A DNA stretch of 64,000 nt, from positions 121,913 to 185,912 of the forward strand of contig CAWGAF010000002.1 in the NCBI GenBank assembly GCA_963820495.1, read 5' to 3'. The notes under the pieces were generated by a model that saw only the letters and a list, made by a program, of their open reading frames with translations, ran no database searches and was not told the DNA's origin. Both the position numbers and the translations under genes were made by a program. Positions 1 through 16,259 of the stretch are shown piece after piece. Source of the DNA: an uncultured Chloroflexia bacterium. GTDB taxonomy: Bacteria > Chloroflexota > Dehalococcoidia > GIF9 > UBA5629. Positions within the stretch are counted from its first letter, which is position 1. Every line of letters begins with the position of its first letter.

Positions 1-736
1 GTAGGCGCAGTTCAGGTCCGCCGCCATAGAGTTCACTGGTGATTCCACGGTCAGAAGGACTGTTGATAGGATCATTACTGTCTAACAGATATAACTTAAC
101 TCGTCCCACCTTGGTTTCCCAGGCACGCAACCACAAAACACGCCCAGGAAAGTCTATTGTAATCCGAAGCCAATCACCATTTTTGTCGCGAACTGGCATA
201 ATTGGTAGCTGGCTGGGGTCGTTGTATGGATAAAACTCGGTCTGATCCCCTTGAGTATCTATTACTTGGCGGAAATAACCCTGTTGGTACATGAGCCCCA
301 CACCAACTAAAGGCACGCCAAGATCGCTTGCAGTTTTAAGGTAATCACCAGCCAATATTCCAAGGCCCCCAGCGTAGATTGGCAGTGCTTCGCTTAAACC
401 GAACTCCATGCTAAAATAGGCTATACTCAGTGGTGACTTAGGATAAGCTTGTTGGAACCAGGCGGTTCCTTCTGTAGCCTCACGGTGCGCTATCACCAGG
501 TCATTCATAAGTCTGCCGAACTCAGCATCAGCAACAAGTTCTTGGAGGCGAGATGTGGTAACCATTTGAAGGATGAGCCATGGGTTGTTGGTGGTACTCC
601 ATAGTTCTGGGTCGATGCGTTCCCATAACTTGTCGGCGGCATGATTCCATGACCAGCGCAAATCCAGTGCCAGATTTGCCAATTCTTCCAGCCCTTTTGG
701 CAGTTGGGGTAGTAAATAGTAATTGGATACAGTCAC
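1..736 (-). CDS. alpha-glucan phosphorylase family protein (GT35), N-terminal ~245 aa; gene continues beyond window start
   Basis: Absent from ORF track (partial, GTG start). My minus-strand translation from GTG at 736 reads VTVSNYYLLPQLPKGLEELANLALDLRWSWNHAADKLWERIDPELW...YFSMEFGLSEALPIYAGGLGILAGDYLKTASDLGVPLVGVGLMYQQGYFRQ... and stays open to position 1. AGGT lies 7 nt upstream of the GTG, with an in-frame TAA further upstream. Confidence 0.8.
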   Translation of the reverse strand, partial: MTVSNYYLLPQLPKGLEELANLALDLRWSWNHAADKLWERIDPELWSTTNNPWLILQMVTTSRLQELVADAEFGRLMNDLVIAHREATEGTAWFQQAYPKSPLSIAYFSMEFGLSEALPIYAGGLGILAGDYLKTASDLGVPLVGVGLMYQQGYFRQVIDTQGDQTEFYPYNDPSQLPIMPVRDKNGDWLRITIDFPGRVLWLRAWETKVGRVKLYLLDSNDPINSPSDRGITSELYGGGPELRL

Positions 737-895
737 GATGTTTACCTGCGAACGATACGTCTCACCCCATTGAATGCTATTCTTTTCAGTTTTCCCTCTA
801 ATTCGCGTACTGACATGAATTTAGACTGTTGATGCTTTACTATTGACCCGCCGTTTGAATTCTTTGCTATCCCGCGGCTTGCGGCCAAATTTTCT

Positions 896-1579
896 TTACA
901 CCAGCATATAACCAAATGCTTTCTTGCTAATGATCCGCGAGGGTTTAGCAGGTTCAGGTTCTACTTTTTCACGCAGTCTGTGAATTAACTGGTCGATTGT
1001 GGCATCGGATATAGCCGAAGGGTCCTTACTTTCGGGCCACACTGCTTCAATTATCTCGTCTCGCGAGCATACATTTCCGGCATTTTTATAAAGGAACAGT
1101 AGCAGTTCATACTCTTTTTTGGACAGTTTCTTTTGCTTGCCGTCTATTAGGGCCTCTTTTTTCCCCTCCTCGATGTTCAGCCATGTCACTAGGAGTACTT
1201 TGCCGTGCTTACCGGTCAGGACTTCTTTCTGATGAATTATACTGGTGCCTTCAGATTCCTTGAACACCAGTATGATGTGTGCTGAAGTGCCTTCCAACCC
1301 AAGGCCGATCTTGCTGTTGTGCTTGAGTTCATATAAATTGCCGGTAATTATCCTGTCATCATTCAGCATTGTGCCATTGGTACTGCCAAGGTCCTTCACC
1401 CAATACTTGTCATCCTTCTGTAGTATTTCTACATGACGCCTGGAAACAACTTCGTCGTTCAATTCTATATCAGGTTTGTTCTGCGAAGTGAGGCGGCCTA
1501 CTACGACGACCGGTTTATTTAAGGTAAATGTTTTACCAATATCCTCGGCATTACCGCTCTTCACAATTATGAAAGCCAA
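896..1579 (-). CDS. FHA domain + OmpR/PhoB-type winged-helix DNA-binding regulator
   Basis: 227-aa ORF with TTG start and GAGG 6 nt upstream. The N-terminus has FHA hallmarks (VVVGR...SRRHVEI...GSTNGTMLND). The C-terminus (LSKKEYELLLFL...IDQLIHRLREKV...GYMLV) looks like a Trans_reg_C wHTH. Confidence 0.8.
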   Translation of the reverse strand: MAFIIVKSGNAEDIGKTFTLNKPVVVVGRLTSQNKPDIELNDEVVSRRHVEILQKDDKYWVKDLGSTNGTMLNDDRIITGNLYELKHNSKIGLGLEGTSAHIILVFKESEGTSIIHQKEVLTGKHGKVLLVTWLNIEEGKKEALIDGKQKKLSKKEYELLLFLYKNAGNVCSRDEIIEAVWPESKDPSAISDATIDQLIHRLREKVEPEPAKPSRIISKKAFGYMLV

Positions 1580-1658
1580 GCGTAACCTCTAAGCATACAG
1601 GGTCTAATTTGCCTATTGCAGTATAATATAGTGATCACAATAGTTAAAGAACCATGAG

Positions 1659-1700
1659 TTTGTCAGATTCATATTAGGTATTTGTCAGATATCTGTCAAG
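1659..1700. promoter_or_regulatory. three phased TGTCA direct repeats (candidate operator for adjacent wHTH regulator)
   Basis: TTTGTCAGAT occurs at 1659-1668 and again at 1681-1690, then CTGTCAAG at 1693-1700. The TGTCA cores start at 1661, 1683 and 1694, giving spacings of 22 and 11 bp. The site lies in the divergent intergenic region between 896-1579 (-) and 1759-2352 (+). Confidence 0.4.
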
Positions 1701-1758
1701 CAACGTACTTATCAATTGATTAGACTTTTATGAAAACCATGGATAAACGAAGAAAGCT

Positions 1759-2352
1759 GTGAAACGACTGAAGGTATTATGTAGGGTATGTAATACAGAG
1801 AATGATTCCAACGAAGGAGTCTGCCAGGGATGCGGGGTGTCTCTTGACGTGATAGAGCCGGGCAGTGGTGAATTAAAAATCATCTGCCCAAGGTGCCAGA
1901 ACACAAACAATGCCGGCAGTTTCTTCTGTTATACCTGCGGGAAATATTTCGCTGACATAGATCAAGCAAAGACAGGTTGTGGGCCCAATAAACGAGGACG
2001 GGGTGCACTAATGCGCTCTGCACCGAAGGCCAGGGTGATTATGCCAGGCGGGGCTGAAATAATGCTCACGGGCGCCCCTGTGTTCATAGAACGCAGCGAC
2101 TTTGATAGCACGCTGCCACATGAAATATTGATGAGCATTTCCAGACAGCATATTTTAATTACTTATAGTAGAGGCAAATATTACCTGACAGACTACGGGC
2201 ACGAAGGTAAGGGGAGCACTAACCATACCAGGCTTAACGGCATTGATATATATAAAAAAAGAAAGAAGGCTCTCAAAGACGGTGATAAGATTGAACTGGC
2301 TGGTCAGCCAGAACTTACCCTGACTTTCAGGTTGCTACAAGAGCCGAGCTGA
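1759..2352 (+). CDS. double zinc-ribbon + FHA domain protein
   Basis: 197 aa, GTG start. Two zinc ribbons (CRVCNTEN...CQGCG and CPRCQNTN...CYTCG) are followed by FHA motifs (ISRQHILI...GSTNHTRLNG...DGDKIELAG). Confidence 0.8.
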   Translation: MKRLKVLCRVCNTENDSNEGVCQGCGVSLDVIEPGSGELKIICPRCQNTNNAGSFFCYTCGKYFADIDQAKTGCGPNKRGRGALMRSAPKARVIMPGGAEIMLTGAPVFIERSDFDSTLPHEILMSISRQHILITYSRGKYYLTDYGHEGKGSTNHTRLNGIDIYKKRKKALKDGDKIELAGQPELTLTFRLLQEPS

Positions 2353-2376
2353 AGGAGAAATGTTTGGAGGACCCGA

Positions 2377-3180
2377 TTGGAAACAGGTTATAGCTGGGAC
2401 ACAGGACTCTTAAGAGAGATCAATGAGGATAGCATTCTGTGCACCAGCTTTGATCTCAAGACCCACCTGGGAGTCATCTCCGCTGGCCTCTTCGCGGTTG
2501 CAGACGGCATGGGGGGGTACAGTGCTGGTGAAATCGCCAGCGATATTGCCATAAAGACTCTCCATGCAGGGTGTATTTCAGGCCTCCTCGCCCAAAGCCC
2601 TGCTCCACCGCTCTCTATTTTGGCCGCTGCCTTCGACGAGGCTAACAGTAAAGTTATAGAATTTGCCAGCGACACGGATCTGAAGGGCATGGGTACTACC
2701 CTGACCGCTGTACTTGTGATTGGTGGGGATATGTATTTGGCCCACGTAGGTGATTCCAGGTGTTACATAATTAACACCTGGGAGACTATCCAGGTCTCAA
2801 AAGACCATTCCGTAGTCCAACAGCTTGTAGACGAAGGGACTATCACGCCAGAACAGGCAAGGAACCACCCACGCCGGAACGAGATAACACGCGTCCTTGG
2901 TTATTCTAGGGACATTGTCCCGGACCTACATCAGGTAAAACTATATTCAGGTGACAATATCCTTCTCTGCTCTGACGGTCTCTGCAGCGTGCTGCCTTCA
3001 AGTAAGATATCTGAAACCGTCATAGGTTCTGCCAACCCTAACGATGCCTGTACTGACCTGACCGCTCAGGCCAATCTGGCGGGAGGGCCAGACAATATAT
3101 CGGTAATAATAGTAAAGCCCAGCAACCTTCCATCCTGGCAGGCCGTGACCACAGCCCAAACCAGCATTAGGAGAATGTAA
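2377..3180 (+). CDS. PP2C-family Ser/Thr protein phosphatase
   Basis: 267 aa. PP2C motifs: REINEDS, FAVADGMGGYSAGEIAS, GMGTTLTAV, AHVGDSRCY, LLCSDGL, GGPDNISVIIV. Confidence 0.9.
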   Translation: METGYSWDTGLLREINEDSILCTSFDLKTHLGVISAGLFAVADGMGGYSAGEIASDIAIKTLHAGCISGLLAQSPAPPLSILAAAFDEANSKVIEFASDTDLKGMGTTLTAVLVIGGDMYLAHVGDSRCYIINTWETIQVSKDHSVVQQLVDEGTITPEQARNHPRRNEITRVLGYSRDIVPDLHQVKLYSGDNILLCSDGLCSVLPSSKISETVIGSANPNDACTDLTAQANLAGGPDNISVIIVKPSNLPSWQAVTTAQTSIRRM

Positions 3181-4202
3181 TGTGGGGGACGAGTAATGTT
3201 TTATTATTAATGGCCCTGGTCTATGCAGCTTTGGTGGTAACTATCGTTATATTTTTAAGTATACGCAAGCGTAAGAAGGGCCGTTCGCGTTCGGGCCAAA
3301 AGAAGGCACAGGTACCTACCTCTATAAGTAATAACACCTACATCATTAACGGGCGCTATGAACTAATGTCACCGCCTCACAAGCAGGGTGGCATGGCAAC
3401 CATTTGGCTTGCGGTCGATCGCAAAACAGGCAGGACGTGCGTTATCAAAACACCGCGCAGGGGTACTACGATAGATAATGTGTACCTTGAAAAGCTCCTG
3501 TTAGAAGCCAGCTATTTGAAGAGGCTCAAACATCCTAACATAGTCAAATACTTTGACGATTTCTACTATAAGGGCGAATTTCACCTTGTCATTGATTACC
3601 TGAATGGGGAAACTCTGATGGCATCATCGCCGAGGTCTCCCTTTGATGAACAACAGGTCATCTTCTGGGCTTGCCAGCTGCTAGATGCGCTTTCTTACAT
3701 ACACGCCGGCGGCATAGTTCACAGGGACGTTAACCCTAAGAACATAATGCTGCGCAACGATGGTACGGTCGAGCTGATCGATTTTGGCACGGCGAAAGAC
3801 TTGAATGATGCTAGTAAAAATAAGACAAGCATTGATCCGTTTACGCAGATCATGAACAAGGGCTTTGATATCCCAGAGCTGTTCATAGGCGGGGAAAGCG
3901 ACCAGCGCTGTGACCTCTGCGGCCTGGCACAGACCTGCATATATCTCCTTACGCTCAATCCGCCAAACGAGATTTGCTCGAGCTTGTTCAAATCCAACTG
4001 GCCACGCTCGTACAGTGAAGCCACAACTATTGCTGATTACCTTATGACAGCTGGTGTATCAAATCGTACGGCAAAGTGTCTGGCACAAGGCATCTTGTTC
4101 TTCCCAGGCAAGAGGTTCGCTGACGCACGCGCTATGTCGGCTGCATTGTCATCAGCATTGGGTTATCCGCTAAAACCAGTGGAGGTGCTGTTACAGAAGT
4201 GA
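3180..4202 (+). CDS. Ser/Thr protein kinase with N-terminal membrane anchor, no ectodomain
   Basis: 340 aa; the start overlaps the PP2C stop (TAATG). An N-terminal TM helix (LLLMALVYAALVVTIVIFL) is followed by kinase motifs: CVIKTP (VAIK-like), HRDVNPKN catalytic loop, DFGTAKD. Confidence 0.85.
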   Translation: MWGTSNVLLLMALVYAALVVTIVIFLSIRKRKKGRSRSGQKKAQVPTSISNNTYIINGRYELMSPPHKQGGMATIWLAVDRKTGRTCVIKTPRRGTTIDNVYLEKLLLEASYLKRLKHPNIVKYFDDFYYKGEFHLVIDYLNGETLMASSPRSPFDEQQVIFWACQLLDALSYIHAGGIVHRDVNPKNIMLRNDGTVELIDFGTAKDLNDASKNKTSIDPFTQIMNKGFDIPELFIGGESDQRCDLCGLAQTCIYLLTLNPPNEICSSLFKSNWPRSYSEATTIADYLMTAGVSNRTAKCLAQGILFFPGKRFADARAMSAALSSALGYPLKPVEVLLQK

Positions 4203-5311
4203 GAGGCACTTTACTGTTACTTTCTATTGCGTTGATTTTAGGAGCCTTTGCAGCGCTGCTTGGCCAAACGGCAGATGTTGGTGGGGTAGGCGCACCGACG
4301 GATAATTCTACAATACCAAATTCCCCTGCTATTGACCAATCTCAGGATGAAATCAAGCCGTCGGTGAACTATGTCCTGCGAGGGCCTACGTCACAGTCCA
4401 AAAGTACACCGCCCAATTTCATCCCCAGTTTCATAGCGACATCGGAACAGGACAAATTCAAGGTCACTGCAAATGAAACCTGGTATCTGGACGTGGACAT
4501 CAATACGCCCGGATGGCTTTATATTTATGAATATTTTCCCGGGGGAGAGGACTTCCAGGGAAAATGGATAGCCTATAAATGGCAATTGCTGCAAAGCGGC
4601 CTCTGGAAGCTTGGCCCGTTCACTCCCGAGAATAATGAACCAGAGGGGCAGCATATATACCGGATTTGGTTTTACAGCGATGGTCAGTGGGCTGAGGAAG
4701 ACCCCAATGCCACGCAGAATAATCTTGTTTTCTGGACATATTCCAAAGGCCAGATTGCTGAGCAACCTGCAGAGCAAGTACCGCCACAACCACTGGTAGC
4801 CCCTGTAAAAGAAACCACGTTGCTTGACCAGTTGCACGGACTTATCACCCCACCGATGGTGCTGTGGTTCGGTCCCTTGGCCTTTATTGTCATCGTCATG
4901 CTCGGCCTTTATCTGTTTTGGAGGTATGCTAGGCGGGCTAGAAGTCAGGAGCCAGTATCACTGCCTGATGAGTCAGAGTTTGAAGTACCATCCGCGGTAT
5001 TACCATCAGTCGCACTCAGTGCCAAAATAGCGCTACCCAACGGTTTGGAGATCCAGATCGCCGGCAAAAGCAGAGTGATAGGGCGAGTTGAACTCGCCAG
5101 GGCGCTTGGCTTGGATGAACTGGGGCTCATCTCGAGACGACACTTCGAAGTTAGGTCGGAATGCGAGCAGTTCTACATTGAGGACCTGGGCAGCGCTAAC
5201 GGCACCAGACTCAACGGTGCAGATATCAAAGGCAAAGGGCCAGTCAGCCTAAATAACGATGACGTCATAGAACCGGCCGGCGCAATAAGTCTAAAGTTTT
5301 ATGTTCCTTGA
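4199..5311 (+). CDS. single-pass membrane protein, secreted ectodomain + cytoplasmic C-terminal FHA domain
   Basis: 370 aa; GTG start overlaps the kinase stop (GTGA). Contains a signal peptide, an ectodomain with the PGWLYIYEYFP...GLWKLGPF motif, a TM helix (LAFIVIVMLGLYLFW), then FHA motifs (IGR...SRRHFEV...GSANGTRLNG). Confidence 0.8.
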   Translation: MRGTLLLLSIALILGAFAALLGQTADVGGVGAPTDNSTIPNSPAIDQSQDEIKPSVNYVLRGPTSQSKSTPPNFIPSFIATSEQDKFKVTANETWYLDVDINTPGWLYIYEYFPGGEDFQGKWIAYKWQLLQSGLWKLGPFTPENNEPEGQHIYRIWFYSDGQWAEEDPNATQNNLVFWTYSKGQIAEQPAEQVPPQPLVAPVKETTLLDQLHGLITPPMVLWFGPLAFIVIVMLGLYLFWRYARRARSQEPVSLPDESEFEVPSAVLPSVALSAKIALPNGLEIQIAGKSRVIGRVELARALGLDELGLISRRHFEVRSECEQFYIEDLGSANGTRLNGADIKGKGPVSLNNDDVIEPAGAISLKFYVP

Positions 5312-5482
5312 CCCTGTAAAGGTCAATCAGAGATTAACCCCATCAAACTATTCCGTCCACCATCTTCCTTTTTGTCAGGAAACTGTCAGTTAACTGTCAG
5401 ACTGTGGTCAAGCAGTCCACTTCCGGCACGTGTATATTTAACCTTGATAAGGAAATATTATATTTGGGAGTTGACAGTCATA

Positions 5483-7039
5483 ATGAAGAAGATTTTAGTG
5501 GCGATTCTTATTATTATCTTGGTCCAATCAGTCGCTATTATTGCAATCTCACCTGTCTATGCCCAGGACTACCCGCTTCCGCCGTTAAGCCCTGATGTAT
5601 CATGGCAACCTCCGTATCAAGGAGGGCAGTTTATGGAGCCCCAGGTGGGCGTAGAAACGTACAGCCAAACTTGGTCTAACCTACAAATTTCGCCGCCGTT
5701 GGCCGTTGCACCGGGAACCCCGAGCTCTATAGTAAATGCTTACCTTGTCAATAGCTACGGACAGATCCTGACCGACCTGTATCGTAACGGGATATGTTAT
5801 CTAATTGTGTCTTTTAACGGTCCGGGCTATTTCTATCTATGGGAATATTACCCTTCTGGCACCACATCTTACGGACACTGGCTTTGTTACCGATGGTACC
5901 GCCCATACGCTGGCGTCTGGAGGGTCGGGCCATTCGCTGCTGAGTCCTTTGACCCTGCTGGCAGGCATATCTGGAAGATGTGGTTCCTTTCTGGGTACTC
6001 CTGGTCAACTCGGTTACTGAGTTTTAATTTCACCAGGAGCTATTATCCGCCAGACATACCAGGCCTGACACCTGGGCTTATTCATTCACCAGTGATTAAC
6101 TCATTCAGTGCCAACAAATCTTCTGTCGAGGCAGGGGAGACAGCAATCCTGACCTGGACAACCACATATGCTGACAGCGTGACTATATCGCCGGGTGTTG
6201 GAACAGTCGCTGCCTCTGGCTCCACGTCAGTCACTCCAGCTTCCACAATCAGTTATACATTGGTGGCGAGGGGTAAATCGGGCAACCCCGCATCATCGAC
6301 TGCAACCATAACGGTTATACCTAGGCTTCCACCCAATATCAGCATCGGCCAAGCCACAATACAGAGCGGGCAGTCAACATCCCTATCCTGGAATGCCCCC
6401 GGAGCGATCCAGGTATCAATAACGGATGTTGGCAATGTCGGTAACAGTGGGACTACGCAGGTATCGCCGGATAACACAACTACTTACACACTTGCCGCTA
6501 CTTATATTGATGGTACTGCGCAGTCTACATCCGTAACAGTTAACGTAGAGCGGCCGCCATATTTGCTCTGGGGCATTATAACTTTATTGGCAGCAGCAGT
6601 CGTTGTGATAGTTATCTTACTTGTCAGGAGATCTGCGGCAGTCCCCCGGGCACAGGCGGCAGATACACAAGGAGCTTACACGCCAGAGTCAAAAGCAACA
6701 CTTTCCACTGATACATTGCCGGCCACCACGCCGGTAGAGGAGGTTGCCGCGGCTAAGCTTGCCATGCCAGATGGGAACGAGATACTACTGGCAGGCAATG
6801 CCAGGTCTTTCGGTCGGCATGACTTTGAAGAATTCATGCTGCGTGATCAAGTCTCTTATATATCTAGGCAGCACATCAACATCTGGCACGAAAGCGGTCA
6901 CTACTACATTGAGGATCGCAGCAGCACCAACGGCACCAAGATCAATGGTACAAATATCAAGGGAACCGGCCGGCATGCACTTGATGACGGCGATGTAATT
7001 GAGCTTGCAGGCAAATTGAGCATCACTTTTAAAAAATAA
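5483..7039 (+). CDS. single-pass membrane protein, paralogous ectodomain + two Ig-like repeats + cytoplasmic C-terminal FHA domain
   Basis: The track ORF begins at 5372, but the signal peptide MKKILVAILIIILVQSVAIIA starts at ATG 5483. The ectodomain motif PGYFYLWEYYP...GVWRVGPF is paralogous to 4199-5311. Then come two repeats of ~85 aa, a TM helix (IITLLAAAVVVIVILLV) and FHA motifs (FGR...SRQHINI...SSTNGTKINGT). Confidence 0.8.
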   Translation: MKKILVAILIIILVQSVAIIAISPVYAQDYPLPPLSPDVSWQPPYQGGQFMEPQVGVETYSQTWSNLQISPPLAVAPGTPSSIVNAYLVNSYGQILTDLYRNGICYLIVSFNGPGYFYLWEYYPSGTTSYGHWLCYRWYRPYAGVWRVGPFAAESFDPAGRHIWKMWFLSGYSWSTRLLSFNFTRSYYPPDIPGLTPGLIHSPVINSFSANKSSVEAGETAILTWTTTYADSVTISPGVGTVAASGSTSVTPASTISYTLVARGKSGNPASSTATITVIPRLPPNISIGQATIQSGQSTSLSWNAPGAIQVSITDVGNVGNSGTTQVSPDNTTTYTLAATYIDGTAQSTSVTVNVERPPYLLWGIITLLAAAVVVIVILLVRRSAAVPRAQAADTQGAYTPESKATLSTDTLPATTPVEEVAAAKLAMPDGNEILLAGNARSFGRHDFEEFMLRDQVSYISRQHINIWHESGHYYIEDRSSTNGTKINGTNIKGTGRHALDDGDVIELAGKLSITFKK

Positions 7040-7057
7040 ATATAAATAGGAGGTACA

Positions 7058-8377
7058 ATGAATTTCAGAAAGGCAATCCTAATCTTGGCAGTAGCATTAT
7101 TAATATGCTCTGCGACATTATTACAGGTCACACCGACATTCGCTGCAGCGGTCGTGGCGAGCGAACATGGGGTGTCATTGCAGGACCTTCCACCGCCACC
7201 TCCACCTCCACCACCACCACCTCCACCTCCACCACCTCCTCCACCTCCACCTCCACCTCCACCTCCACCTCCACCTCCACCTCCGCCTCCACCTCCACCT
7301 CCGCCTCCACCTCCACCTCCACCTCCACCTCCACCTCCGCCTCCACCTCCACCTCCACCTCCGCCTCCACCTCCGCCTCCACCTCCACCTCCACCTCCAC
7401 CTCCACCTCCACCTCCTGCACCGCCGAGGTGGTACCTTCCTAGTTATCTAGGTCCATGGCCTTATACTTGGAGGTTGCCAAATTACATATGGCCAAACGT
7501 GGTAATAATTGAGCAACCTCAAAAGCAGCCTGTCTATGCGCCGGTAGTTAACTCGTTTACCGCTAATCCGGGTTATATTCATTCGTATGAGACAGTTGTA
7601 TTAACGTGGACCGTGAGTAATGCAGATACAGTTACCTTATCCCCTGGGATTGGTTCAGTTCCCAATTCCGGCTCATACAATGTGAGCCCTGGTTATACAA
7701 CTACCTATACTCTTTCTGCTACTAATAACGCCGGCAGTGTCAGCGCCAGCACCACTGTGACGGTTGTTCCATACGCTTCCGCTTTAAACACCAGCATAGG
7801 CACCCAAGTCATAAGCGATGGGAGCGTTGTCAATGCTGGTGCCAGCGACATCGTGCCCCTCGGGTTCGGGGGTGGCGATGGACCGTTTAATTCATGGCCG
7901 CCGTATGTCCTGTTGATTGGCTTGCTGGTTATAGCGGGCGCGGTTATAGCAGTTTTTCTGGTCAAAAAACCCGCTGTAGCCCATGCAGGACGCCGTGCCA
8001 GCGCGCCTGCAGGATACCTGGCTTGGGCTACCGATACACCAGTTGCAACTAGAACTCCACAAACCACGCCCATTGATGCCGGGACTTCAGCGAAGTTCGT
8101 AACGCCGGATGGGGGGCACATATCCGCATCAGGAAATGTCGAATCTCTGGGAAGGAATGATTTCCAATCTTTTGTGATGCCAGACGAAATCAGCCTGATT
8201 TCCAGGGAGCACATACGAGTCGAATGCGAAAATGGCAAGTACTACATAGAGGACCGTAATAGCACTAATGGCACTAGGATTAACGGGTCTAGAATCACTG
8301 GCAAAGGCAGGTTCTTATTGAGGGATGGTGATGTGATCGAGCTTGCTGATGTACTTACCATTATCTTCAAGGCTTAA
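7058..8377 (+). CDS. single-pass membrane protein with 76-residue polyproline tract, Ig-like repeat and cytoplasmic C-terminal FHA domain
   Basis: 439 aa, AGGAGG SD. Order of elements: signal peptide (TFA/AAV), polyPro tract, a repeat similar to those of 5483-7039 (VVNSFTANP...TYTLSATN), a TM helix (VLLIGLLVIAGAVIAVFLV), then FHA motifs (LGR...SREHIRV...NSTNGTRINGS). Confidence 0.8.
   Translation: MNFRKAILILAVALLICSATLLQVTPTFAAAVVASEHGVSLQDLPPPPPPPPPPPPPPPPPPPPPPPPPPPPPPPPPPPPPPPPPPPPPPPPPPPPPPPPPPPPPPPPPPPPPPPPPPPPAPPRWYLPSYLGPWPYTWRLPNYIWPNVVIIEQPQKQPVYAPVVNSFTANPGYIHSYETVVLTWTVSNADTVTLSPGIGSVPNSGSYNVSPGYTTTYTLSATNNAGSVSASTTVTVVPYASALNTSIGTQVISDGSVVNAGASDIVPLGFGGGDGPFNSWPPYVLLIGLLVIAGAVIAVFLVKKPAVAHAGRRASAPAGYLAWATDTPVATRTPQTTPIDAGTSAKFVTPDGGHISASGNVESLGRNDFQSFVMPDEISLISREHIRVECENGKYYIEDRNSTNGTRINGSRITGKGRFLLRDGDVIELADVLTIIFKA
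7190..7417 (+). repeat. imperfect hexanucleotide repeat (CCACCT / CCGCCT)n encoding 76 consecutive Pro codons
   Basis: Read codon by codon in the frame of CDS 7058-8377, every codon from 7190 to 7417 is CCN. It is followed by GCA CCG CCG. Confidence 0.95.
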
Positions 8378-8394
8378 CAGTACTAAGAGCCAGC

Positions 8395-8439
8395 ACTTGT
8401 GAAGAAAACAGGTGCTGGCTCTTGTTTTTCTGTTCGTAA
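8395..8439 (+). terminator. rho-independent terminator after the FHA operon
   Basis: Perfect 12-bp stem (AAGAGCCAGCAC at 8395-8406, GTGCTGGCTCTT at 8422-8433), 15-nt loop, then GTTTTT. Confidence 0.75.
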
Positions 8440-8826
8440 TCTAAAATGTGACCTGCTCCTTCAATGACGAGCAGTGTTTTATAGTTTTTAAGCTAGCTTC
8501 GTTTTGTTTCTGGGGTGTTGTTTTGCATCAGGGTATACTAAGAAGTCTGTTAGCAAAAAAGTCACTTTGACTGGTGGAGCTTACTGTACCAAACAAAGAA
8601 CTTTTACCGTGGGTTTTAGCCTTCATACCTAGCTTAATTTTCACAATTGGGGGAGCAAAGCAACATAAAGTGGGGGTATAGTCTATTCTGTTTGAAGATG
8701 CAATGATCCGATGATTCGCTATACGATATAATCAGAATGGTTCAGATCGGGGAAATTGGCGTGAACCAGTTAACAAAATACTAATTTGTCTTTATATTTA
8801 TACAAGGGTTTTTAGAAGTTATTCAT

Positions 8827-8855
8827 TTCATATACCAGATAAATGATGCTATAAT
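8827..8855 (+). promoter_or_regulatory. candidate extended -10 promoter for the DUF262 gene pair
   Basis: TGCTATAAT (TGnTATAAT) at 8847-8855, with a weak -35 TTCATA 17 nt upstream. It lies ~55 nt upstream of ATG 8910. Confidence 0.35.
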
Positions 8856-8909
8856 CACATACACTCATATATGGCAGAATATATTTTACATTATTAGGGT
8901 AAGGTAACA

Positions 8910-10610
8910 ATGCCTGATCATATCTCTCTTAAATGTATTCTTGAATTACTAGATAATCACTTTATTATCCCTTCCTATCAGAGAGGTTATCGATGGACAT
9001 CTCAAGAGGTAAACGATCTACTGAATGACATTTGGGAGTTTACTAAAAAGGATCAAAAATCTAAAAAGGAATTCTATTGTTTACAACCTATCATCGTTAC
9101 ATCTAATGAGAATGGATATATCGTAATAGATGGACAACAGAGATTAACTACCATTTATATTATTTTCGAAGTATTGAAAGAAATAAAAAACCACTTAACT
9201 AAAAAAATGTTTACTCTCGAATATCAAACGAGAGAAGATAGTGAATATTTTCTTAAAAATATTGAAACATCTCGACAGGATGAAAATATCGACTATTACC
9301 ACATATGTAACGCATATACAACAGTACAGAATTGGTTTGAAACTAAACAAGGTTCACCGAAAATAGATATTTTGAGTACGTTATTACGTGATGATGATAG
9401 TGGACACAATGTAAAAGTTATTTGGTACGAGGTTGATTCGACTTCAACGCTTGACCAAATAGAAATATTTACTCGAATTAACACTGGGAAAATTCCACTC
9501 ACTAATGCTGAACTTGTGAAAGCCTTATTATTGCGAGAAGATAATTTTCAGGGTAATGAGAAAGGCGTACGCTTAGCTCAACTAGAAATGGCTTCAGATT
9601 GGGATAACATTGAGTATAGTCTTGGGGATAACCAATTGTGGTACTTCCTTTGTGATAACCAAAAACAATACGAAAATAGAATAGAATTTATATTTGATTT
9701 GATTGCAGGTACATCAAGTTTAGATAGATACCATACATTTAGATATTTTAATAAGCAACTCACTGAGTCTATGAGTGCTGATACTATCTGGCAACAAATA
9801 AAAAGATACTATCTTACATTCTTCGAATGGTTCGAACGTCGTGAATATTATCACCTTATCGGTTACCTTATCTCTTTGGGAGAAAGCGTAAAAAACCTAG
9901 AGTCCCACTCTTCAACAAAATCAAAATCTGAGTTCAAAGAGTTCTTAGAAGGTAAAATCAAAGATCATGTTAGATATAATATCGACGAACTCAATTACGA
10001 TGAAGACCGAGTTAAAATAAAGAAAATTCTTTTATTGTTCAACATTGTTACTCTACTTTCTAATAAAAACACAAATGCGCGATTTCAATTTGGAAGATAT
10101 AAGACTGAAGAATGGGATATCGAACATATTCATTCAGTGCAATCAGAAAGACCGGAAGCGACAAATCACAAGATTGACTGGTTGAAAGAAGTGTATAGTT
10201 ATACAGAGAACGAGGACCTAAAAAAAGAAATAGAAAATTATCTAGAATCAAGACATGATCAGGATGATGATACATTTGTTAGCTTATTTGACAAGATACT
10301 GCAGGCCTACAGTGAAGATGGTGTAGTTGAAGATATAGATGATATTTCTAATCTGGCTTTATTAGATTCAGGAACAAACCGAGGATATAAAAATGCAGTA
10401 TTTCCGATAAAAAGGCAAAGAATTATAGAAAAAGATACTTACGGGACTTTTATCCCCTTATGTACAAAAAATGTTTTCATGAAATACTATAGTAAAAAAG
10501 TAAATCAAATGACATTTTGGGGTAAAAATGATCGAAAAGCATATTTAGAGGCACTAAAACAAGTATTATCACCGTATATACTAAATATCGAAGATCAGAC
10601 TGATGAATGA
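8910..10610 (+). CDS. GmrSD-like DUF262 + DUF1524 (His-Me finger) protein, putative type IV modification-dependent restriction enzyme
   Basis: 566 aa. The N-terminus has IIPSYQRGYRW and VIDGQQRLTT (DUF262/ParB-like NTPase motifs). The C-terminus has WDIEHIHS...NLALLDSGTNRGYKNAVFPIKR (DUF1524-like nuclease motif). The region is strongly AT-rich. Confidence 0.75.
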   Translation: MPDHISLKCILELLDNHFIIPSYQRGYRWTSQEVNDLLNDIWEFTKKDQKSKKEFYCLQPIIVTSNENGYIVIDGQQRLTTIYIIFEVLKEIKNHLTKKMFTLEYQTREDSEYFLKNIETSRQDENIDYYHICNAYTTVQNWFETKQGSPKIDILSTLLRDDDSGHNVKVIWYEVDSTSTLDQIEIFTRINTGKIPLTNAELVKALLLREDNFQGNEKGVRLAQLEMASDWDNIEYSLGDNQLWYFLCDNQKQYENRIEFIFDLIAGTSSLDRYHTFRYFNKQLTESMSADTIWQQIKRYYLTFFEWFERREYYHLIGYLISLGESVKNLESHSSTKSKSEFKEFLEGKIKDHVRYNIDELNYDEDRVKIKKILLLFNIVTLLSNKNTNARFQFGRYKTEEWDIEHIHSVQSERPEATNHKIDWLKEVYSYTENEDLKKEIENYLESRHDQDDDTFVSLFDKILQAYSEDGVVEDIDDISNLALLDSGTNRGYKNAVFPIKRQRIIEKDTYGTFIPLCTKNVFMKYYSKKVNQMTFWGKNDRKAYLEALKQVLSPYILNIEDQTDE

Positions 10611-12810
10611 TAATGACGGCCAAAAATTAACTTTTCTCGATATATTTAGAGATAAGGAATATTTGGTTGAAATACCAATAATCCAGAGAGATTATGCTCA
10701 TGGAAGAGAATCAGCTTCTAGAGTGAGGAGTAATTTTTTAACTTCCTTATACCATTCTCTCCAAAAAGATGAACCACTCGACCTGGATTTTATATATGGC
10801 AGTATTTCCGATGGTAAATTAATTCCGTTAGATGGTCAGCAAAGACTTACGACACTATTTCTTCTTCATTGGTATCTTGCATCTAAAGAAGGGTACTTAG
10901 AGGATTTTAACAGTATACTCAGAATTGAGAATAGATCTAAATTTACATATGAAACAAGAACAACGTCGCGTGAATTCTGTAATGCATTAATTGCACATGA
11001 GATTGTGATACCTTCTTCACTAACCACCAAAATAAGTGAAACCATTAAGGATGCTCAGTGGTTCTATATTTCTTGGGAAAAAGATCCGACAATCAAGTCA
11101 ATGCTCGTTATGCTCGATGCTATTCATGAGAAATTCATAGACAGTATAGATTTTTACAATAAGCTATCCAAAACTGATAATCCAGTTATTAGTTTTCAAT
11201 TTATTGAGCTCAAGGATTTTGGGCTATCAGACAGCTTGTATATCAAAATGAATGCGCGGGGTAAAGAACTAACTCCATTCGAAAACTTTAAAGCAAAATT
11301 CGAGAAAGTATTGGAAATCTATGATACCGAAAATGATACCAATCTAAAAGAAAACTTCTCTTTGAAAATAGATACTATATGGCCTGACATTTTCTGGAAA
11401 TATAGAGATAAAAAAACCAATTCATTTGACGAGAAAATAATGAATTTTATTCGTATATTAGCTACTAATGAGTATGTAGTCATCTCGGAAAATCTAAACT
11501 TTCTATATTTAGGGAGGTTGATTAATGCGAGAGTGATAGAATTCGATGATCTTGTTGAATTAGATTGTTTAAATACAGCATTTTTCTTATCGGTAATAAA
11601 TACGCTTGATACTCTCAGTGACAAAGGGAAAACAGGTATAAGGGAATATTTACCAAATAATGATTTATTGTCCGAATCTCAGTTATTTCAAGGGGCAATC
11701 GAATATAACTTGTCATATCCAGAGAGAATACAACTTTATGGGTTATTTAGTTATTTAAATGAATTTGGTAACAGTGATAAATTGATTGAATGGATTCGTG
11801 TTGTCAGGAATCTAACTGAAAACACTCGGATTGATGAAATACCTGATTACGTGTCTGCGCTGAAATCGATTAATCAACTCTTTACACATTCAAATGAAAT
11901 TCTTGAATACGTTTCTGATGCTTCAAACGAAATTAGAAGTTTTGCCGCGATTCAAGTTTCCGAAGAAAGACTTAAGGCTTTGCTTATTCAAAAAAGCGAT
12001 AGATGGAAACAAGCTATTGTCAATATTGAAAACCACGGGTATTTTAAGGGGCAAATCGGTTTTATACTGAAATTTTCTGGCATCACCGATTACTATCGAG
12101 AAAATACCAATGTTGATTGGTCAGCCACTGAGGATGGTAATTATTTCAATAAGTTTTCTGAATATTCATTAAAAGCTAATTCGGTCTTTATCCAGACGGG
12201 CTTGAAAAAGTTCAATGATTACCTATTTGAGCGAGCTCTACTATCTAAAGGTAATTATACGCTTAGTAAAGGTCTAAATAATAGTTTCTTAGTGGATTCT
12301 GATAGAGATATCGGATGGAAAAGGTTGTTACGAGATGATAATCAAAAAAGAGATTACGTAAAAGAATTATTGGATGATTTAAGAACATCTGAAATTGAAA
12401 AAGATCTACAAATCATAGTAGATCACTCCACTATCACAGATTGGAGAAAGTATTTTGTTGAATACCCTGAAATGATCGGTGCTTGTGGTACTAGCAAATT
12501 TATTCGATGGGAAAGTAGTAATGATATTTTACTTCTGAAAAGGACCAAAACTAATGGGTTGCACAGTGAATATTCCTCTTACGCTTTATGTGTGAAACTT
12601 AGAAGAATGGGGCATACTGTCTTGTATAGGGAAAGTAATTCAGTAGATTACTGGAAATATATTTATTATATCAATGGGCATAATATTATGATCTACTATG
12701 ATTACTTCGAAGGAGAATGGCACTACTTCATTAAGTATCAAGACGTCACTACCACCCATAAATTTCAAGATGAAGTCTTGTCATATTTAAAAGATAATGG
12801 AATCATTTAA
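10603..12810 (+). CDS. DUF262 domain protein with long uncharacterised C-terminal region
   Basis: 735 aa; the ATG overlaps the upstream stop by 8 nt (ATGAATGA). The N-terminus has IPIIQRDYAHGR and LDGQQRLTTLFLLHWYL. I could see no clear H..P / N..N nuclease motif in the C-terminal ~450 aa. Confidence 0.7.
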   Translation: MNDNDGQKLTFLDIFRDKEYLVEIPIIQRDYAHGRESASRVRSNFLTSLYHSLQKDEPLDLDFIYGSISDGKLIPLDGQQRLTTLFLLHWYLASKEGYLEDFNSILRIENRSKFTYETRTTSREFCNALIAHEIVIPSSLTTKISETIKDAQWFYISWEKDPTIKSMLVMLDAIHEKFIDSIDFYNKLSKTDNPVISFQFIELKDFGLSDSLYIKMNARGKELTPFENFKAKFEKVLEIYDTENDTNLKENFSLKIDTIWPDIFWKYRDKKTNSFDEKIMNFIRILATNEYVVISENLNFLYLGRLINARVIEFDDLVELDCLNTAFFLSVINTLDTLSDKGKTGIREYLPNNDLLSESQLFQGAIEYNLSYPERIQLYGLFSYLNEFGNSDKLIEWIRVVRNLTENTRIDEIPDYVSALKSINQLFTHSNEILEYVSDASNEIRSFAAIQVSEERLKALLIQKSDRWKQAIVNIENHGYFKGQIGFILKFSGITDYYRENTNVDWSATEDGNYFNKFSEYSLKANSVFIQTGLKKFNDYLFERALLSKGNYTLSKGLNNSFLVDSDRDIGWKRLLRDDNQKRDYVKELLDDLRTSEIEKDLQIIVDHSTITDWRKYFVEYPEMIGACGTSKFIRWESSNDILLLKRTKTNGLHSEYSSYALCVKLRRMGHTVLYRESNSVDYWKYIYYINGHNIMIYYDYFEGEWHYFIKYQDVTTTHKFQDEVLSYLKDNGII

Positions 12811-13198
12811 ATCTTGAAAATTCCATAACGATCTACACTAACCACGATCTCGAGTGGCCATAAAAGCCTTGCTTCCAGTGACCCTCCCCGCCTGGATTGG
12901 TTCACCCTGCATTAGAGTTTCCGCGGTCATACAGCAGGAGGCTTTTTCCTTTCGTTTTTTTACATCTCGCCACCACCCGGGAGGGGGCGACAATCTAGCG
13001 CTTTCTTCGACTCTAATTTTATGTCTTTTTGTTGGAAAATGTAGCTAAATACTCACAAAACACGAAGCATATTAACAACAGAATAATAAATGAAAATCCA
13101 TGGACTGAACGCTTGTCCCCTTGAAACGATTTTAGTATGACATTATCGGGCATGGGTTCTTTATTCAGTACAGTATATGGCCAATTTATGAAGCTAAG

Positions 13199-13271
13199 TG
13201 GAGCTGATGGGATTCGAACCCACTACCTTCTGACTGCCAGTCAGACGCTCTCCCAATTGAGCTACAGCCCC
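13199..13271 (-). tRNA. tRNA-Ala (anticodon GGC)
   Basis: Minus-strand sequence GGGGCTGTAGCTCAATTGGGAGAGCGTCTGACTGGCAGTCAGAAGGTAGTGGGTTCGAATCCCATCAGCTCCA folds as a 73-nt cloverleaf. It has a G3:U70 identity pair, anticodon loop CTGGCAG and a TTCGAAT T-loop. No CCA is encoded. Confidence 0.93.
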
Positions 13272-13430
13272 ACGATTGCGAATGGAGATATATAGTCTAG
13301 CATAAGATAGATTTCAGGGCAATGAACTGCGCTTGTGTGCTGATAGGTTGACAAATTGCGGGAAAAGCTGTAGTAATAGTATTAGTAAATATATATGGCT
13401 AGAATAGCCAGCATGAAGGAATAATACGAA

Positions 13431-14345: not shown

Positions 14346-16259
14346 TTATTTTGCAGCTCTTGCTTTTTTCTTGGTGCTAAAGCTTAATCCGCTGCCATCA
14401 ACGCTGCTGATGAAGATATGGCTGCCTTCTTTAAACTCACCACTGAGAATCTTGTTGGACAAGGGATTCTCTACATAGCGCTGGACAGCTCGGCGCAGTG
14501 GACGTGCTCCAAAGGCTGGTTCAAAACCTTCCTTGAGCAGCCAGGATTTTGCCTCATCATCCAGTTCCAGTACTATATTACGGTCTGCCAATCGTTTCTG
14601 CACTTCATTAATTAACAGGTCTACAATCTTCTTCAAATGTTCCTCAGTAAGAGGATGGAAGATGATGATATCGTCTATTCTGTTGAGAAACTCAGGGCGG
14701 AAGGTCCGTTTCAGAGCATTATCTATAGTCCCCTTCAACCTATCGTAGTCGCTCTTTTCCTGTTTTTCCTGGCGGGCAAAGCCTATTGCCTGTCGCTGGA
14801 ATTCCTCGGTACCCAGGTTGCTGGTCATTATTACGACGGTATTTCTGAAGTCAACTGTTCTGCCATGGCCGTCGGTTAACCTGCCATCCTCGAGTATTTG
14901 GAGCAGGATATTGAAAACATCAGGGTGCGCCTTCTCAATCTCGTCAAAAAGGATTACCCGGAACGGGCGCCGTCGCACGGCTTCGGTCAATTGTCCTGCT
15001 TCTTCATAGCCGATATATCCAGGCGGAGCGCCGACAAGGCGTGAAACCGTATGTTTTTCGCCGTACTCGGACATATCTATCCGAATTAGGGATTCCTCAT
15101 TATCGAACAGAAATTGAGCCAGTGCTTTAGCCAACTCCGTTTTGCCGACGCCGGTGGGGCCTAAAAAGATGAAGCTGCCCACAGGGCGTTTGGGGTCTTT
15201 GAGACCAGCTCTGCCACGTCTGATGGCTTCCGATATAACGGAGACAGCTTCTTCCTGGTTGACAATTCTGTCATGCAGTCTTTCCTCCATGTGAAGTAAT
15301 TTCTCAGCTTCACCCTCCAGCATGCGAGATACCGGGATACCGGTCCACTTGGCAACCAGCTCAGCGATGGTCTCCTGGTCTACGGGTTTATCGAATTTTT
15401 TCTCTTTACGCCACGCTGAATCTAACTGCTCATGCTCCGGTTCCAGGCGTAACCGCTGTGCCCTTATTTCGGCTGCTTTCTGATAGTCTCCCTGCTGAGC
15501 TGCTGATTCCTCTTCGTTTTGCAGTTGCTTTATCTGGATGTCCAGTTTTTTGATATTATCAGGTTTACTTTCCATGTCGATATGTATCTTGCTGGCTGCT
15601 TCGTCAATGAGGTCTATAGCTTTATCTGGCAGAAATCTATCCGAGATATAGCGCTGGCTCAGTTGAGCTGCAGCTACCAGTGCGGAATCATCTATCTTGA
15701 TTTTATGGTGAGCTTCATATCTGGGACGCAGAGCATGCAGCATTTCTATAGTCGCCTCAACGCTGGGCTCATTGATAAATATTGGCTGCAACCTTCGTTC
15801 TAATGCTTTATCCTTCTCAATATGCTCACGGTATTCATTTAGAGTGGTGGCTCCGATACATCTAAGCTCGCCACGTGCCAGCGCAGGCTTTAGCATATTG
15901 CTGGCATCAATGGCTCCCTCGGCAGCACCGGCACCAACGACAGTGTGCAACTCGTCGATGAATAAAACCACTTCTCCATTGGACTGGCGAACTTCATCTA
16001 TCACCGCCTTCAGCCGCTCTTCAAACTCGCCTCGAAATTTGCTGCCGGCAACCAGCGCTGCCATATCCAAGGCAATTACTCTTTTATTTTTTAGAGAATC
16101 AGGTACATCGCCAGCGGCGATTTTCTCAGCTAGACCTTCAGCAATGGCTGTTTTGCCTACGCCAGCCTCACCGATAATGACGGGGTTATTCTTGGTTCGG
16201 CGAATCAATATCTGCATTACTCGTTTTATTTCGTCATCACGCCCGATCACAGGGTCCAA
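14346..16259 (-). CDS. clpB: ClpB disaggregase, NBD1-middle domain-NBD2 fragment (downstream part of a frameshifted clpB)
   Basis: 637 aa: [13 protein letters not shown], Walker A GEAGVGKT and GPTGVGKT, a coiled-coil M domain, and GARPLRR. ClpB homology continues upstream of the track start in this frame ([23 protein letters not shown]). Confidence 0.9.

Follow-up and report, generated by a model that had tools for sequence, protein, structure and literature searches.

To our knowledge, Hanks-type kinases are linked to transcription in only a few cases, such as EmbR, the cross-phosphorylation of response regulators and the FHA-containing enhancer-binding proteins (EBPs) of Myxococcus. A locus in an uncultured Chloroflexia bacterium (Chloroflexota; Dehalococcoidia; GIF9; UBA5629) raises the question of how else such a kinase might be coupled to gene expression, because here one Ser/Thr kinase gene and one phosphatase gene are accompanied by five genes for FHA proteins, one of which also carries a DNA-binding domain. 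The stretch of DNA that we analysed, hereafter the window, comprises 64,000 nucleotides of GenBank assembly GCA_963820495.1 (contig CAWGAF010000002.1, positions 121,913 to 185,912). We find that seven of its genes, G1 to G7, listed below, constitute a real, conserved and undescribed variant of Hanks-kinase signalling, the mechanism of which we infer. Our preferred explanation, to which we assign a probability of roughly 0.58, is that the cassette would be a self-contained and autoregulated phosphothreonine (pThr) signalling module, in which G1, a protein with an FHA domain and a winged helix-turn-helix (wHTH), acts on the promoters of the cassette.

896 to 1579, minus strand: G1, FHA-wHTH regulator of 227 aa (Pfam FHA 62.9 and Trans_reg_C 71.8 bits)
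1759 to 2352, plus strand: G2, cytoplasmic protein of 197 aa with a double zinc ribbon and an FHA domain (Pfam DZR 33.6, FHA 39.4)
2377 to 3180, plus strand: G3, PP2C Ser/Thr phosphatase of the Stp1/IreP type without a transmembrane (TM) segment (Pfam PP2C 52.5; NCBIfam NF033484 237.7)
3180 to 4202, plus strand: G4, Hanks-type kinase of 340 aa with an N-terminal TM anchor (Pkinase 115.6 bits)
4199 to 5311, plus strand: G5, type-I membrane protein with an FHA domain (43.5 bits) and TM segments
5483 to 7039, plus strand: G6, type-I membrane protein with an FHA domain (50.6 bits; AlphaFold2 (AF2) model)
7058 to 8377, plus strand: G7, paralog of G6 with an FHA domain (55.6 bits; 35% identity to G6)

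A first-pass annotation, made from the letters alone, had placed seven open reading frames here, and our check of the window recovered them at exactly the same coordinates, from which the overlaps of 1 nt between G3 and G4 (position 3180) and of 4 nt between G4 and G5 (4199-4202) follow. The gene content that it described also stood up to searches with hidden Markov models, every domain scoring above its curated cut-off: five FHA domains (39.4-62.9 bits against 20.7 for Pfam PF00498), one Stp1-type PP2C, one Hanks kinase and one wHTH of the OmpR/PhoB type. The residues typical of pThr binding (G-R, S-x-x-H, N-G) are found, and conserved, in four of the proteins, G1, G5, G6 and G7, in the forms GR, SRRH, SRQH or SREH, and NGT; G5, G6 and G7 do each end, as had been proposed, in an FHA domain with these residues. 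G2 carries the variants E-R and N-H(-T), which are invariant among orthologs and keep the Arg, Ser, His and Asn; across 25 orthologs there is no variation in its second zinc ribbon, CPRC...FFCYxCG, or in its FHA motifs FIER, SRQH and STNHT.

When species-representative genomes were scanned, about 38 species-level genomes proved to have a full-length G1 ortholog at 60-86% identity, almost all of them labelled as Dehalococcoidia, Dehalococcoidales or Chloroflexota metagenome-assembled genomes (MAGs). G1 divergent from G2-G3-G4-G5-G6(-G7) is the order in essentially every locus of adequate length when scored by a BLAST script, with identities of 40-86%, and the flanking genes vary between genomes. 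Lack of co-conservation in relatives had been named beforehand as grounds for refuting the idea of a single locus; what we found is strict synteny across about 38 species with differing flanks, and the shared gene order is not due to chance. One MAG (VGOO01) has a G1/G2 copy on each of two contigs, L007 and L009, 81% and 79% identical to the window, which suggests either two cassette paralogs or a strain-mixed bin.

The DNA between the genes contains two arrays of direct repeats, Op1 and Op2, each of which precedes a promoter:

1621 to 1629, minus strand: invariant GTATAATAT block, probable G1 -10 element (alignment of 26 intergenic regions)
1660 to 1702, plus strand: Op1, four 11-bp units TTGTCAGATTC ATATTAGGTAT TTGTCAGATAT CTGTCAAGCA (same alignment)
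1721 to 1726, plus strand: -10-like TAGACT of the G2-G5 promoter, 18 nt past the terminal GCA of Op1
5372 to 5414, plus strand: Op2, four 11-bp units TTGTCAGGAAA CTGTCAGTTAA CTGTCAGACTG TGGTCAAGCA in the gap between G5 and G6 (conserved in 29 species)
5433 to 5438, plus strand: TATATT, the -10 box that serves G6-G7, 18 nt past Op2
8384 to 8424, plus strand: intrinsic terminator at the end of the G6-G7 unit and of the whole cassette (17-bp stem, 8 GC pairs, T run)

Both arrays comprise four 11-bp-phased (T/G)GTCA units, end in GTCAAGCA and are followed after exactly 18 nt by a -10 box, and no -35-like hexamer is present at either plus-strand promoter. Op1 is a 43-bp block in the divergent G1/G2 gap that is near-invariant in 26 species whereas the flanking DNA is variable and has indels, giving a column identity of 0.93 against 0.62 in the remaining intergenic region (26 sequences); for Op2 the corresponding values are 0.84 and 0.54 (29 species). 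The spacing is similarly constrained, with TAnnnT located exactly 18 nt past the GCA of Op1 in 23 of 24 species, and TATAGT, TATATT or TATACT exactly 18 nt past that of Op2 in all 29. Where insertions part G5 from G6, at loci L023 and L037, Op2 remains with G6. Arrays with at least three of the four phased units occur only as Op1 and Op2 in 699 kb of DNA from the lineage and are absent from 756 kb of unrelated loci, and the exact pattern TGTCA-N6-TGTCA has only three matches in the window, of which one belongs to Op1 and the others (5373 and 5384) to the gap of 171 nt between G5 and G6. Members of the OmpR/PhoB family bind tandem direct repeats as head-to-tail dimers, and Op1 or Op2 followed by 18 nt and a -10 box is textbook class-II activator geometry for a winged helix of this type.

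The cassette thus consists of three transcription units, G1 on the minus strand and G2-G5 and G6-G7 on the plus strand, the last of which is closed by a terminator that starts 7 nt past the G7 stop codon. The earlier picture of six closely spaced plus-strand genes therefore stands as regards strand and overlaps, but not across the 171-nt gap before G6, which contains a separate promoter and operator. The invariant GTATAATAT block has a constant spacing to the GGAGGT ribosome-binding site and start codon of G1 and probably represents, on the strand to which we assign it, the -10 element of the G1 promoter; a promoter scan gave a minus-strand TTAACT-16-TATACT ending at 1620. On the minus strand of Op1 itself, units 4 and 2 form TTGACA-17-TAATAT (a 10/12 promoter match), which may be a further promoter of G1 with which the operator overlaps.

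We considered whether Op1 might be an RNA element, and rejected this because it is the direct repeats that are conserved, and not a 10-bp palindrome in the window, CAGATATCTG, in place of which other species have CAGATAGCTG or CAGAAAGCTG, and because Rfam, which finds only tRNA in the window, has no match there. The gap between G1 and the gene that lies 3' of it (821-895) was also discarded as an operator, having just two of the four phased units; that gene (2-820, minus strand) runs off the left edge of the window and encodes a DUF3417/alpha-glucan phosphorylase. At L012 (either side of Op1) and at L024 and L025 (between the -10 box and G2) there are inserts of 50-110 bp with CCCC...GGGG inverted repeats, for example CCCCTTTATCCCCC...GGGGGAAA, that resemble small mobile repeat elements. 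These inserts adjoin the module of operator and -10 box and are never found within it.

The candidate ligand of these operators is G1, which is organised as an N-terminal FHA domain, a linker of about 30 aa containing Thr112 and a C-terminal winged helix. Its Trans_reg_C match (71.8 bits against a cut-off of 26.2) covers the profile in full, from 1 to 77. The first 100 residues are FHA in Pfam, with no match to Response_reg; lacking a receiver domain, G1 falls outside the response-regulator class, and it scores far under all NCBIfam response-regulator equivalog cut-offs (for instance 64.8 against 270 for PhoB). There is likewise no BTAD match, and Pfam places the FHA domain before the wHTH, which sets G1 apart from EmbR and the SARP proteins and agrees with the annotated domain order, reversed relative to EmbR. 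Among solved structures the DNA-binding domain is closest to those of DrrD, VicR, WalR and RegX3, and the FHA domain to those of GarA and OdhI. A search of a protein collection returned 429 G1 homologs, including one 100% match, the best 120 of which are all at least 73% identical and all have FHA plus Trans_reg_C. Thr112 lies 6-7 residues past the last FHA strand in the motif FKESExT-x-[ILV]-[ILM] and is invariant in 35 orthologs; a Thr is found at the equivalent position in 10 of 12 distant members of the FHA-wHTH family.

Given this domain, it could be asked whether the repeats are instead bound by a conventional response regulator, such as the PhoB of the host, leaving G1 with other targets or with none at this locus. 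The TGTCA core at 11-bp spacing does resemble the E. coli Pho box, CTGTCAT-N4-CTGTCAT, tandem 11-bp repeats of which are bound by PhoB under phosphate limitation, and sites of the same type are found at unrelated genes in other contigs, one of them (L141) beside another Trans_reg_C protein. We nevertheless regard this explanation as improbable. The arrays are confined to the cassette in the 699 kb of lineage DNA, no response-regulator gene lies within the cassette or its flanks, and a preference for TGTCA is plausible for G1 because its own best NCBIfam wHTH match is PhoB-like. The sites also travel with G1 homologs when the neighbouring genes differ. At L084, a homolog with 46% identity (P0241) has TTAGTCAGATAATTGTCAAGCA in its divergent gap. 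At L139, a 53%-identical homolog is divergent from a gene for a CARDB/InlB-repeat surface protein, and yet a site of the Op1 type is there, in which even the odd CATATTAG unit recurs and which lies 18 nt from TAGACT. At L211, where the homolog (P0284) is only about 30% identical to G1, three 11-bp-phased TCAG-core units (TGTTCAG, TTGTCAG, TGTTCAG) sit upstream of an FHA-PP2C-kinase operon. The persistence of the site beside G1 homologs despite a changed neighbouring gene supports a link between G1-like regulators and the operator, and G1 probably switches the two promoters of its own cassette. The divergent gaps of L089 and L090 are AT-rich with only an ambiguous TCAA/TTGAAT periodicity and were not counted as operators.

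The view of the FHA-wHTH protein as the transcriptional output of the locus is thus strengthened by two conserved OmpR/PhoB-type direct-repeat operators, one at each plus-strand promoter of the cassette, and at the same time narrowed: as the cassette operons are its only demonstrable targets, what emerges is a loop by which the cassette regulates itself, and not a regulon lying downstream of it. A metagenome operator scan matched at least 120 loci, and about half of the matches listed are cassette sites; outside the cassette, at least 10 metagenome loci have three or more phased units, compared with about 0.1 expected by chance.

Non-cassette sites with at least three phased TGTCA units, GCA, 18 nt and TAnnnT were seen at L107, L108/L129/L174, L113, L136, L171, L205, L210 and L141, and the genes 3' of them include small unknown proteins. 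Such sites might extend the regulon, or they might serve related regulators. At L160, a phosphorylase gene (112-2604) whose product is 49% identical to that of the window is preceded by a three-unit phased TGTCA site and TATAAT.

Among the enzymes of the cassette, G3 is a full-length match to the Stp1/IreP equivalog NF033484 at 237.7, the cut-off being 230. G4 has the Pkinase score and, with one deviation, the catalytic residues of a Hanks-type Ser/Thr kinase: all of 32 orthologs share the VIK Lys, the alphaC Glu (LxEA), HRD, the catalytic-loop Asn, DFG, DIPE and the Thr of FTQI in the activation loop. The deviation lies in the catalytic loop (residues ~172-179), which reads HRD(V/I)NPKN in all 32, so that the usual Lys of HRDxKxxN is replaced by Asn; a Lys follows two positions later, at D+4, where tyrosine kinases with HRDLAARN have their Arg. 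The single TM segment of G4 (residues 7-25) is N-terminal and is followed directly by RKRKKGR, which leaves about six extracellular residues and no ectodomain, and the protein terminates with the kinase domain. PASTA repeats are absent from G4, and the PASTA-kinase model NF033483 aligns with the kinase domain only, at 113.6 against a cut-off of 450. The description of G4 as an anchor-only kinase lacking a sensor ectodomain is therefore borne out.

It had been suggested that sensing is delegated to the three membrane proteins instead, and hydropathy together with the positive-inside rule gives all three the same topology. In each of G5, G6 and G7, a signal-like segment at the N-terminus is accompanied by a single TM segment (221-239, 363-381 and 284-302, respectively), and since basic residues and then the FHA domain come after the TM segment, they are type-I proteins with a cytoplasmic FHA domain. 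This part of the annotation, three single-pass proteins with cytoplasmic C-terminal FHA domains, is supported by the TM segments, the basic residues and the FHA scores. In G5, the signal segment is followed by a Trp-rich beta-sandwich ectodomain, TM 221-239 and the FHA domain; in G6, the signal peptide is followed by beta-sandwiches at 56-184, 204-279 and 285-356, a TM helix (360-381), a disordered Thr-rich linker and the FHA domain (425-517). The G5 ectodomain (57-167) is homologous to the first sandwich of G6 (66-177; 32% identity, E 6e-21). An AF2 model of G6 (predicted local distance difference test (pLDDT) 73.9) contains the signal helix, three beta-sandwiches, the TM helix, the disordered linker and the FHA domain, and a Foldseek search with it against the PDB gave only generic tandem Ig-like proteins (ICAM-1, GhpA, SGBP-B, titin). 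No Pfam family covers the Trp-rich N-terminal domain of G5 and G6, and a profile search with it gave 16 fragments, all from the same lineage, with no relative beyond these proteins and no functional clue. G7, a paralog of G6 (35% identity over 385 aa), has a signal segment, a poly-Pro run, one Ig-like domain, TM 284-302, a Thr-rich linker and the FHA domain. Large ectodomains are accordingly present in all three, but that of G7 is largely a run of 76 consecutive prolines (nt 7190-7417). The CCN codons of this run give a strong negative GC skew (-0.26).

That G5, G6 and G7 are receptor-like sensors of external ligands, whose FHA domains dock on the autophosphorylated kinase and so gate a signal to G1, would fit with a kinase that has no ectodomain, with the invariant FTQI activation-loop Thr and with the conservation of large ectodomains (40-75% identity) in proteins that keep their FHA domains intact, and the overlaps from G3 through G4 to G5 suggest stoichiometric co-production of the kinase and G5. 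The nature of the ectodomains speaks against it. No PAS, Cache, PASTA, CHASE or solute-binding fold was found in those of G5-G7, which consist of generic Ig-like domains, a lineage-specific Trp-rich sandwich and poly-Pro spacers. The N-terminal region of G7 is hypervariable among orthologs in both length and composition, containing poly-Pro, (Thr-Ala)n, Cys/Tyr-rich or PAPVVETT repeats, and varies freely between species in a manner unlike that of a ligand pocket. G6 and G7 are, moreover, expressed from the regulated Op2 promoter, and are thus outputs of the circuit. The receptor-like adaptor proposed at first is not sustained by these features, and we consider it unlikely. The three ectodomains look like an envelope-spanning surface structure rather than a ligand sensor, and G6 and G7, being themselves made from a regulated promoter, could be taken for outputs, substrates or scaffolds no less readily than for inputs.

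A structural role could also be the primary one. The FHA/pThr-mediated clustering of membrane proteins is familiar from Rv1747 and FhaA, and cultured relatives within the Dehalococcoidia are not known to have peptidoglycan, and hence to have the usual ligand of PASTA kinases. The cassette might then be a peptidoglycan-less counterpart of fhaA-fhaB-pstP...pknB that builds an envelope or division scaffold through pThr-dependent clustering, its transcriptional control amounting to housekeeping feedback. With its FHA-PP2C-kinase order and its membrane-anchored FHA proteins, the cassette is reminiscent of fhaB-pstP-pknB; the FhaB/FipA model matches G1 at 56.6 and G6 at 39.9 bits, and the poly-Pro and Ig-like ectodomains look structural. 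The linkers of G6 and G7, disordered and lying beside the FHA domains, contain 16-17% Thr (16% in G6) compared with 7-9% in the whole proteins, which offers a potential for multivalent FHA/pThr contacts. The proteins are highly conserved and the further neighbourhood (ClpB, DnaJ, Der, PlsY) is core-like. Set against this, no rodA, pbpA, ftsW, SEDS, PBP or divisome gene lies within or beside the cassette, either in the window or at the roughly 38 related loci, the best score against the FhaB_Rv0019c equivalog is 56.6 with a cut-off of 125, and operators as elaborate and invariant as Op1 and Op2 point to regulated rather than constitutive expression. We judge a scaffold with incidental transcription to be an unlikely account of the cassette as a whole. 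In the same neighbourhood, clpB appears to be split on the minus strand into a Clp_N frame (16247-16792) and an AAA frame (14346-16259) overlapping by 13 nt, which could reflect a frameshift, a sequencing error or a genuine arrangement.

An anti-phage function was examined because of what lies downstream. Between the cassette terminator and a tRNA-Ala(GGC) gene (13198-13271) there is a low-GC island (8500-13300; 32% against about 48%) with two GmrSD_N/DUF262 genes, at 8910-10610 and 10603-12810, the first of which matches HEC-06, Orf5 and SspE in PADLOC. Relatives lack this stretch, which is probably a defence island that has integrated here. The kinase of the cassette also matches the PADLOC models PD-T4-6 (143 bits) and mad6 (128 bits), and would on that basis belong to a defence system adjoining the island. 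These matches span only the generic kinase domain, however; G1, G2 and G5-G7 have no PADLOC match and G3 only weak ones to PDC-M21C models (E ~8e-6, 23-24 bits), and the cassette is a syntenic core in about 38 species whereas the island differs from it in both distribution and GC content. We reject a defence kinase system as highly improbable.

The model that we prefer, that of an autoregulated pThr module, may be set out as follows. The membrane-anchored kinase G4 would be the writer and the phosphatase G3 the eraser of pThr on proteins of the cassette, likely targets being Thr112 in G1, the activation loop in G4 and, in G6 and G7, the juxtamembrane linkers with their many Thr residues. These marks would be read by the five FHA domains. 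G1 would then be the equivalent of an OmpR/PhoB response regulator that has exchanged its receiver for an FHA domain, the pThr-dependent engagement of which allows it to occupy the tandem repeats and to serve as a class-II activator of the promoters of G2 and G6. The most economical forms of such engagement would be a trans pairing between the FHA domain of one G1 and pThr112 of another, or recruitment to and release from a complex at the membrane. While activating the G2 operon from Op1, G1 may also shut off the overlapping minus-strand promoter of its own gene. At the membrane, the Thr-rich, FHA-containing tails of the Ig-like and poly-Pro surface proteins G5-G7 would be tethered to the kinase complex, and the module would in this way adjust how much of its own envelope-spanning components is present and probably also how they cluster.

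Several points weigh against this model. We infer the binding of G1 to Op1 and Op2, the activity of the kinase and every phosphorylation site from sequence, and the same is true of Thr112 as the acceptor and of the pThr dependence of operator binding. The sign of the regulation, activation as opposed to repression, is guessed from promoter geometry alone. The replacement of the catalytic-loop Lys by Asn means that the activity or specificity of G4 may be atypical. The cytoplasmic linker of G5 has no Thr, and neither a sensor domain nor an input signal was identified in the cassette. An AF2 model of G1, built from a 14-sequence alignment, had a pLDDT of 40.5 and was discarded. On metagenomic contigs, operators of the same type also precede genes for DUF4349 and AAA_35 proteins, for VWA/YfbK and for glucan phosphorylase, and the Trans_reg_C protein adjoining the L141 site is a different one, of 546 aa; another member of the OmpR family could therefore be the binder. 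Should the model be right, it would offer a first means of approaching how uncultured Dehalococcoidia regulate their envelope, and it describes a compact and testable circuit of one kinase, one phosphatase, one FHA-wHTH factor, two near-invariant operators and a candidate acceptor Thr.

FHA-wHTH proteins are not restricted to this lineage. When 1.84 billion representative proteins were searched exhaustively with a profile, about 70 of the best 150 representative clusters were FHA-wHTH proteins of 205-240 aa with full-length matches at 90-250 bits. We retrieved seven distant genomic contexts, and in five of these a Hanks kinase lies within a few genes, usually with PP2C and/or FHA genes as well:

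L087: Pkinase-TPR
L089: Pkinase
L090 (Bacillota MAG): PP2C and Pkinase-TPR
L211: triple-FHA protein, PP2C and two kinases
P0250 contig: FHA, two VWA, DZR-FHA, kinase and PP2C
L084/L085: FHA genes only
L212: no kinase, PP2C or FHA gene

These contexts allow the tentative suggestion, in which we place distinctly less confidence than in the model for the cassette itself, that FHA-wHTH proteins are widespread phosphothreonine response regulators: a Hanks kinase and a PP2C would write and erase pThr, probably on the conserved Thr that closely follows the FHA domain; FHA:pThr pairing in trans would bring about dimers, in the way that phosphorylation on Asp does in OmpR/PhoB, and the dimer or oligomer would bind 11-bp repeats and activate the kinase operon together with surface genes. 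Were this true, Chloroflexota, Bacillota and other phyla would have a full counterpart of the two-component system that runs on Ser/Thr kinases, of which the Dehalococcoidia cassette with its five FHA readers would be the most elaborate form. If G1 binds its operators in a pThr-dependent manner, the exchange of a receiver for an FHA domain would be a general solution to signalling from kinase to DNA.

Comparison with characterised systems helps to define what is distinctive about the cassette. G1 shares with the OmpR/PhoB response regulators a C-terminal Trans_reg_C effector domain, and with OmpR/PhoB and Pho-box systems the use of direct repeats, phased at 11 bp, that stand in for a -35 element and keep a constant distance to the -10 box. 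It differs in having no receiver, no phospho-Asp and no histidine kinase; an FHA domain stands where the receiver would be, and its partners are a Hanks kinase and a PP2C. Op1 and Op2 resemble the Pho box in repeat geometry and TGTCA core, G1 being only their candidate binder, and there is no pst or pho gene near the cassette. EmbR, which acts with PknH in M. tuberculosis, similarly combines an OmpR-type wHTH and an FHA domain in one polypeptide coupled to a Ser/Thr kinase, but in G1 the FHA domain comes first, there is no BTAD, the protein has 227 rather than about 388 aa, and its gene is divergent from, and apparently autoregulates, its own kinase operon. The same principle of design is seen in sigma54 enhancer-binding proteins of Myxococcus xanthus, in which, as Jelsbak, Givskov and Kaiser reportedly described in 2005, an N-terminal FHA domain replaces the receiver under the control of Ser/Thr kinases. 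The swap is the same as in G1; the output there is an AAA+ sigma54 activator with an HTH, and the proteins are not known to be encoded in a cassette of this kind with kinase, PP2C and FHA genes.

As to the kinase and its surroundings, the fhaA-fhaB-pstP-rodA-pbpA-pknA-pknB operon also unites, in a conserved block, FHA proteins (one of them membrane-anchored), a PP2C and one or more membrane Hanks kinases. The kinase of the present cassette is by contrast without PASTA domains, the PP2C is soluble, rodA and pbpA are missing, and there are in addition three type-I FHA proteins with Ig-like or poly-Pro ectodomains and a DNA-binding FHA protein with its operators. With the Stk1/Stp1 pairs of Firmicutes (PrkC/PrpC, IreK/IreP) the cassette shares a phosphatase that passes the Stp1/IreP cut-off, encoded just before the kinase gene and overlapping it, whereas G4 lies far below the cut-off for PASTA kinases and has no extracellular domain. 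The FHA/pThr switches of the GarA/OdhI and Rv1747 types are directed at metabolic enzymes or an ABC transporter and not at DNA. The G1 FHA domain is closest to those of GarA and OdhI, and the Thr beside it, like the Thr-rich linkers of G6 and G7, recalls their cis and trans switching and clustering, but in G1 the Thr is C-terminal to the FHA domain and presumably too close to it for binding in cis. Eukaryotic FOXK1/2 have the same order of FHA domain and winged helix, although their winged helices belong to an unrelated subfamily and the resemblance is an analogy only. Literature searches that combined FHA with Dehalococcoidia or Chloroflexi, or with Trans_reg_C, gave nothing relevant, and we found no paper describing FHA-OmpR-wHTH regulators or this cassette, both of which seem to be undescribed, in keeping with the statement of the first-pass annotation that it knew of no characterised system with this architecture. 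The parts of the cassette, a Hanks kinase, an Stp1-type PP2C, FHA domains and an OmpR-type winged helix, are all of known kinds; it is their combination that seems to be new.

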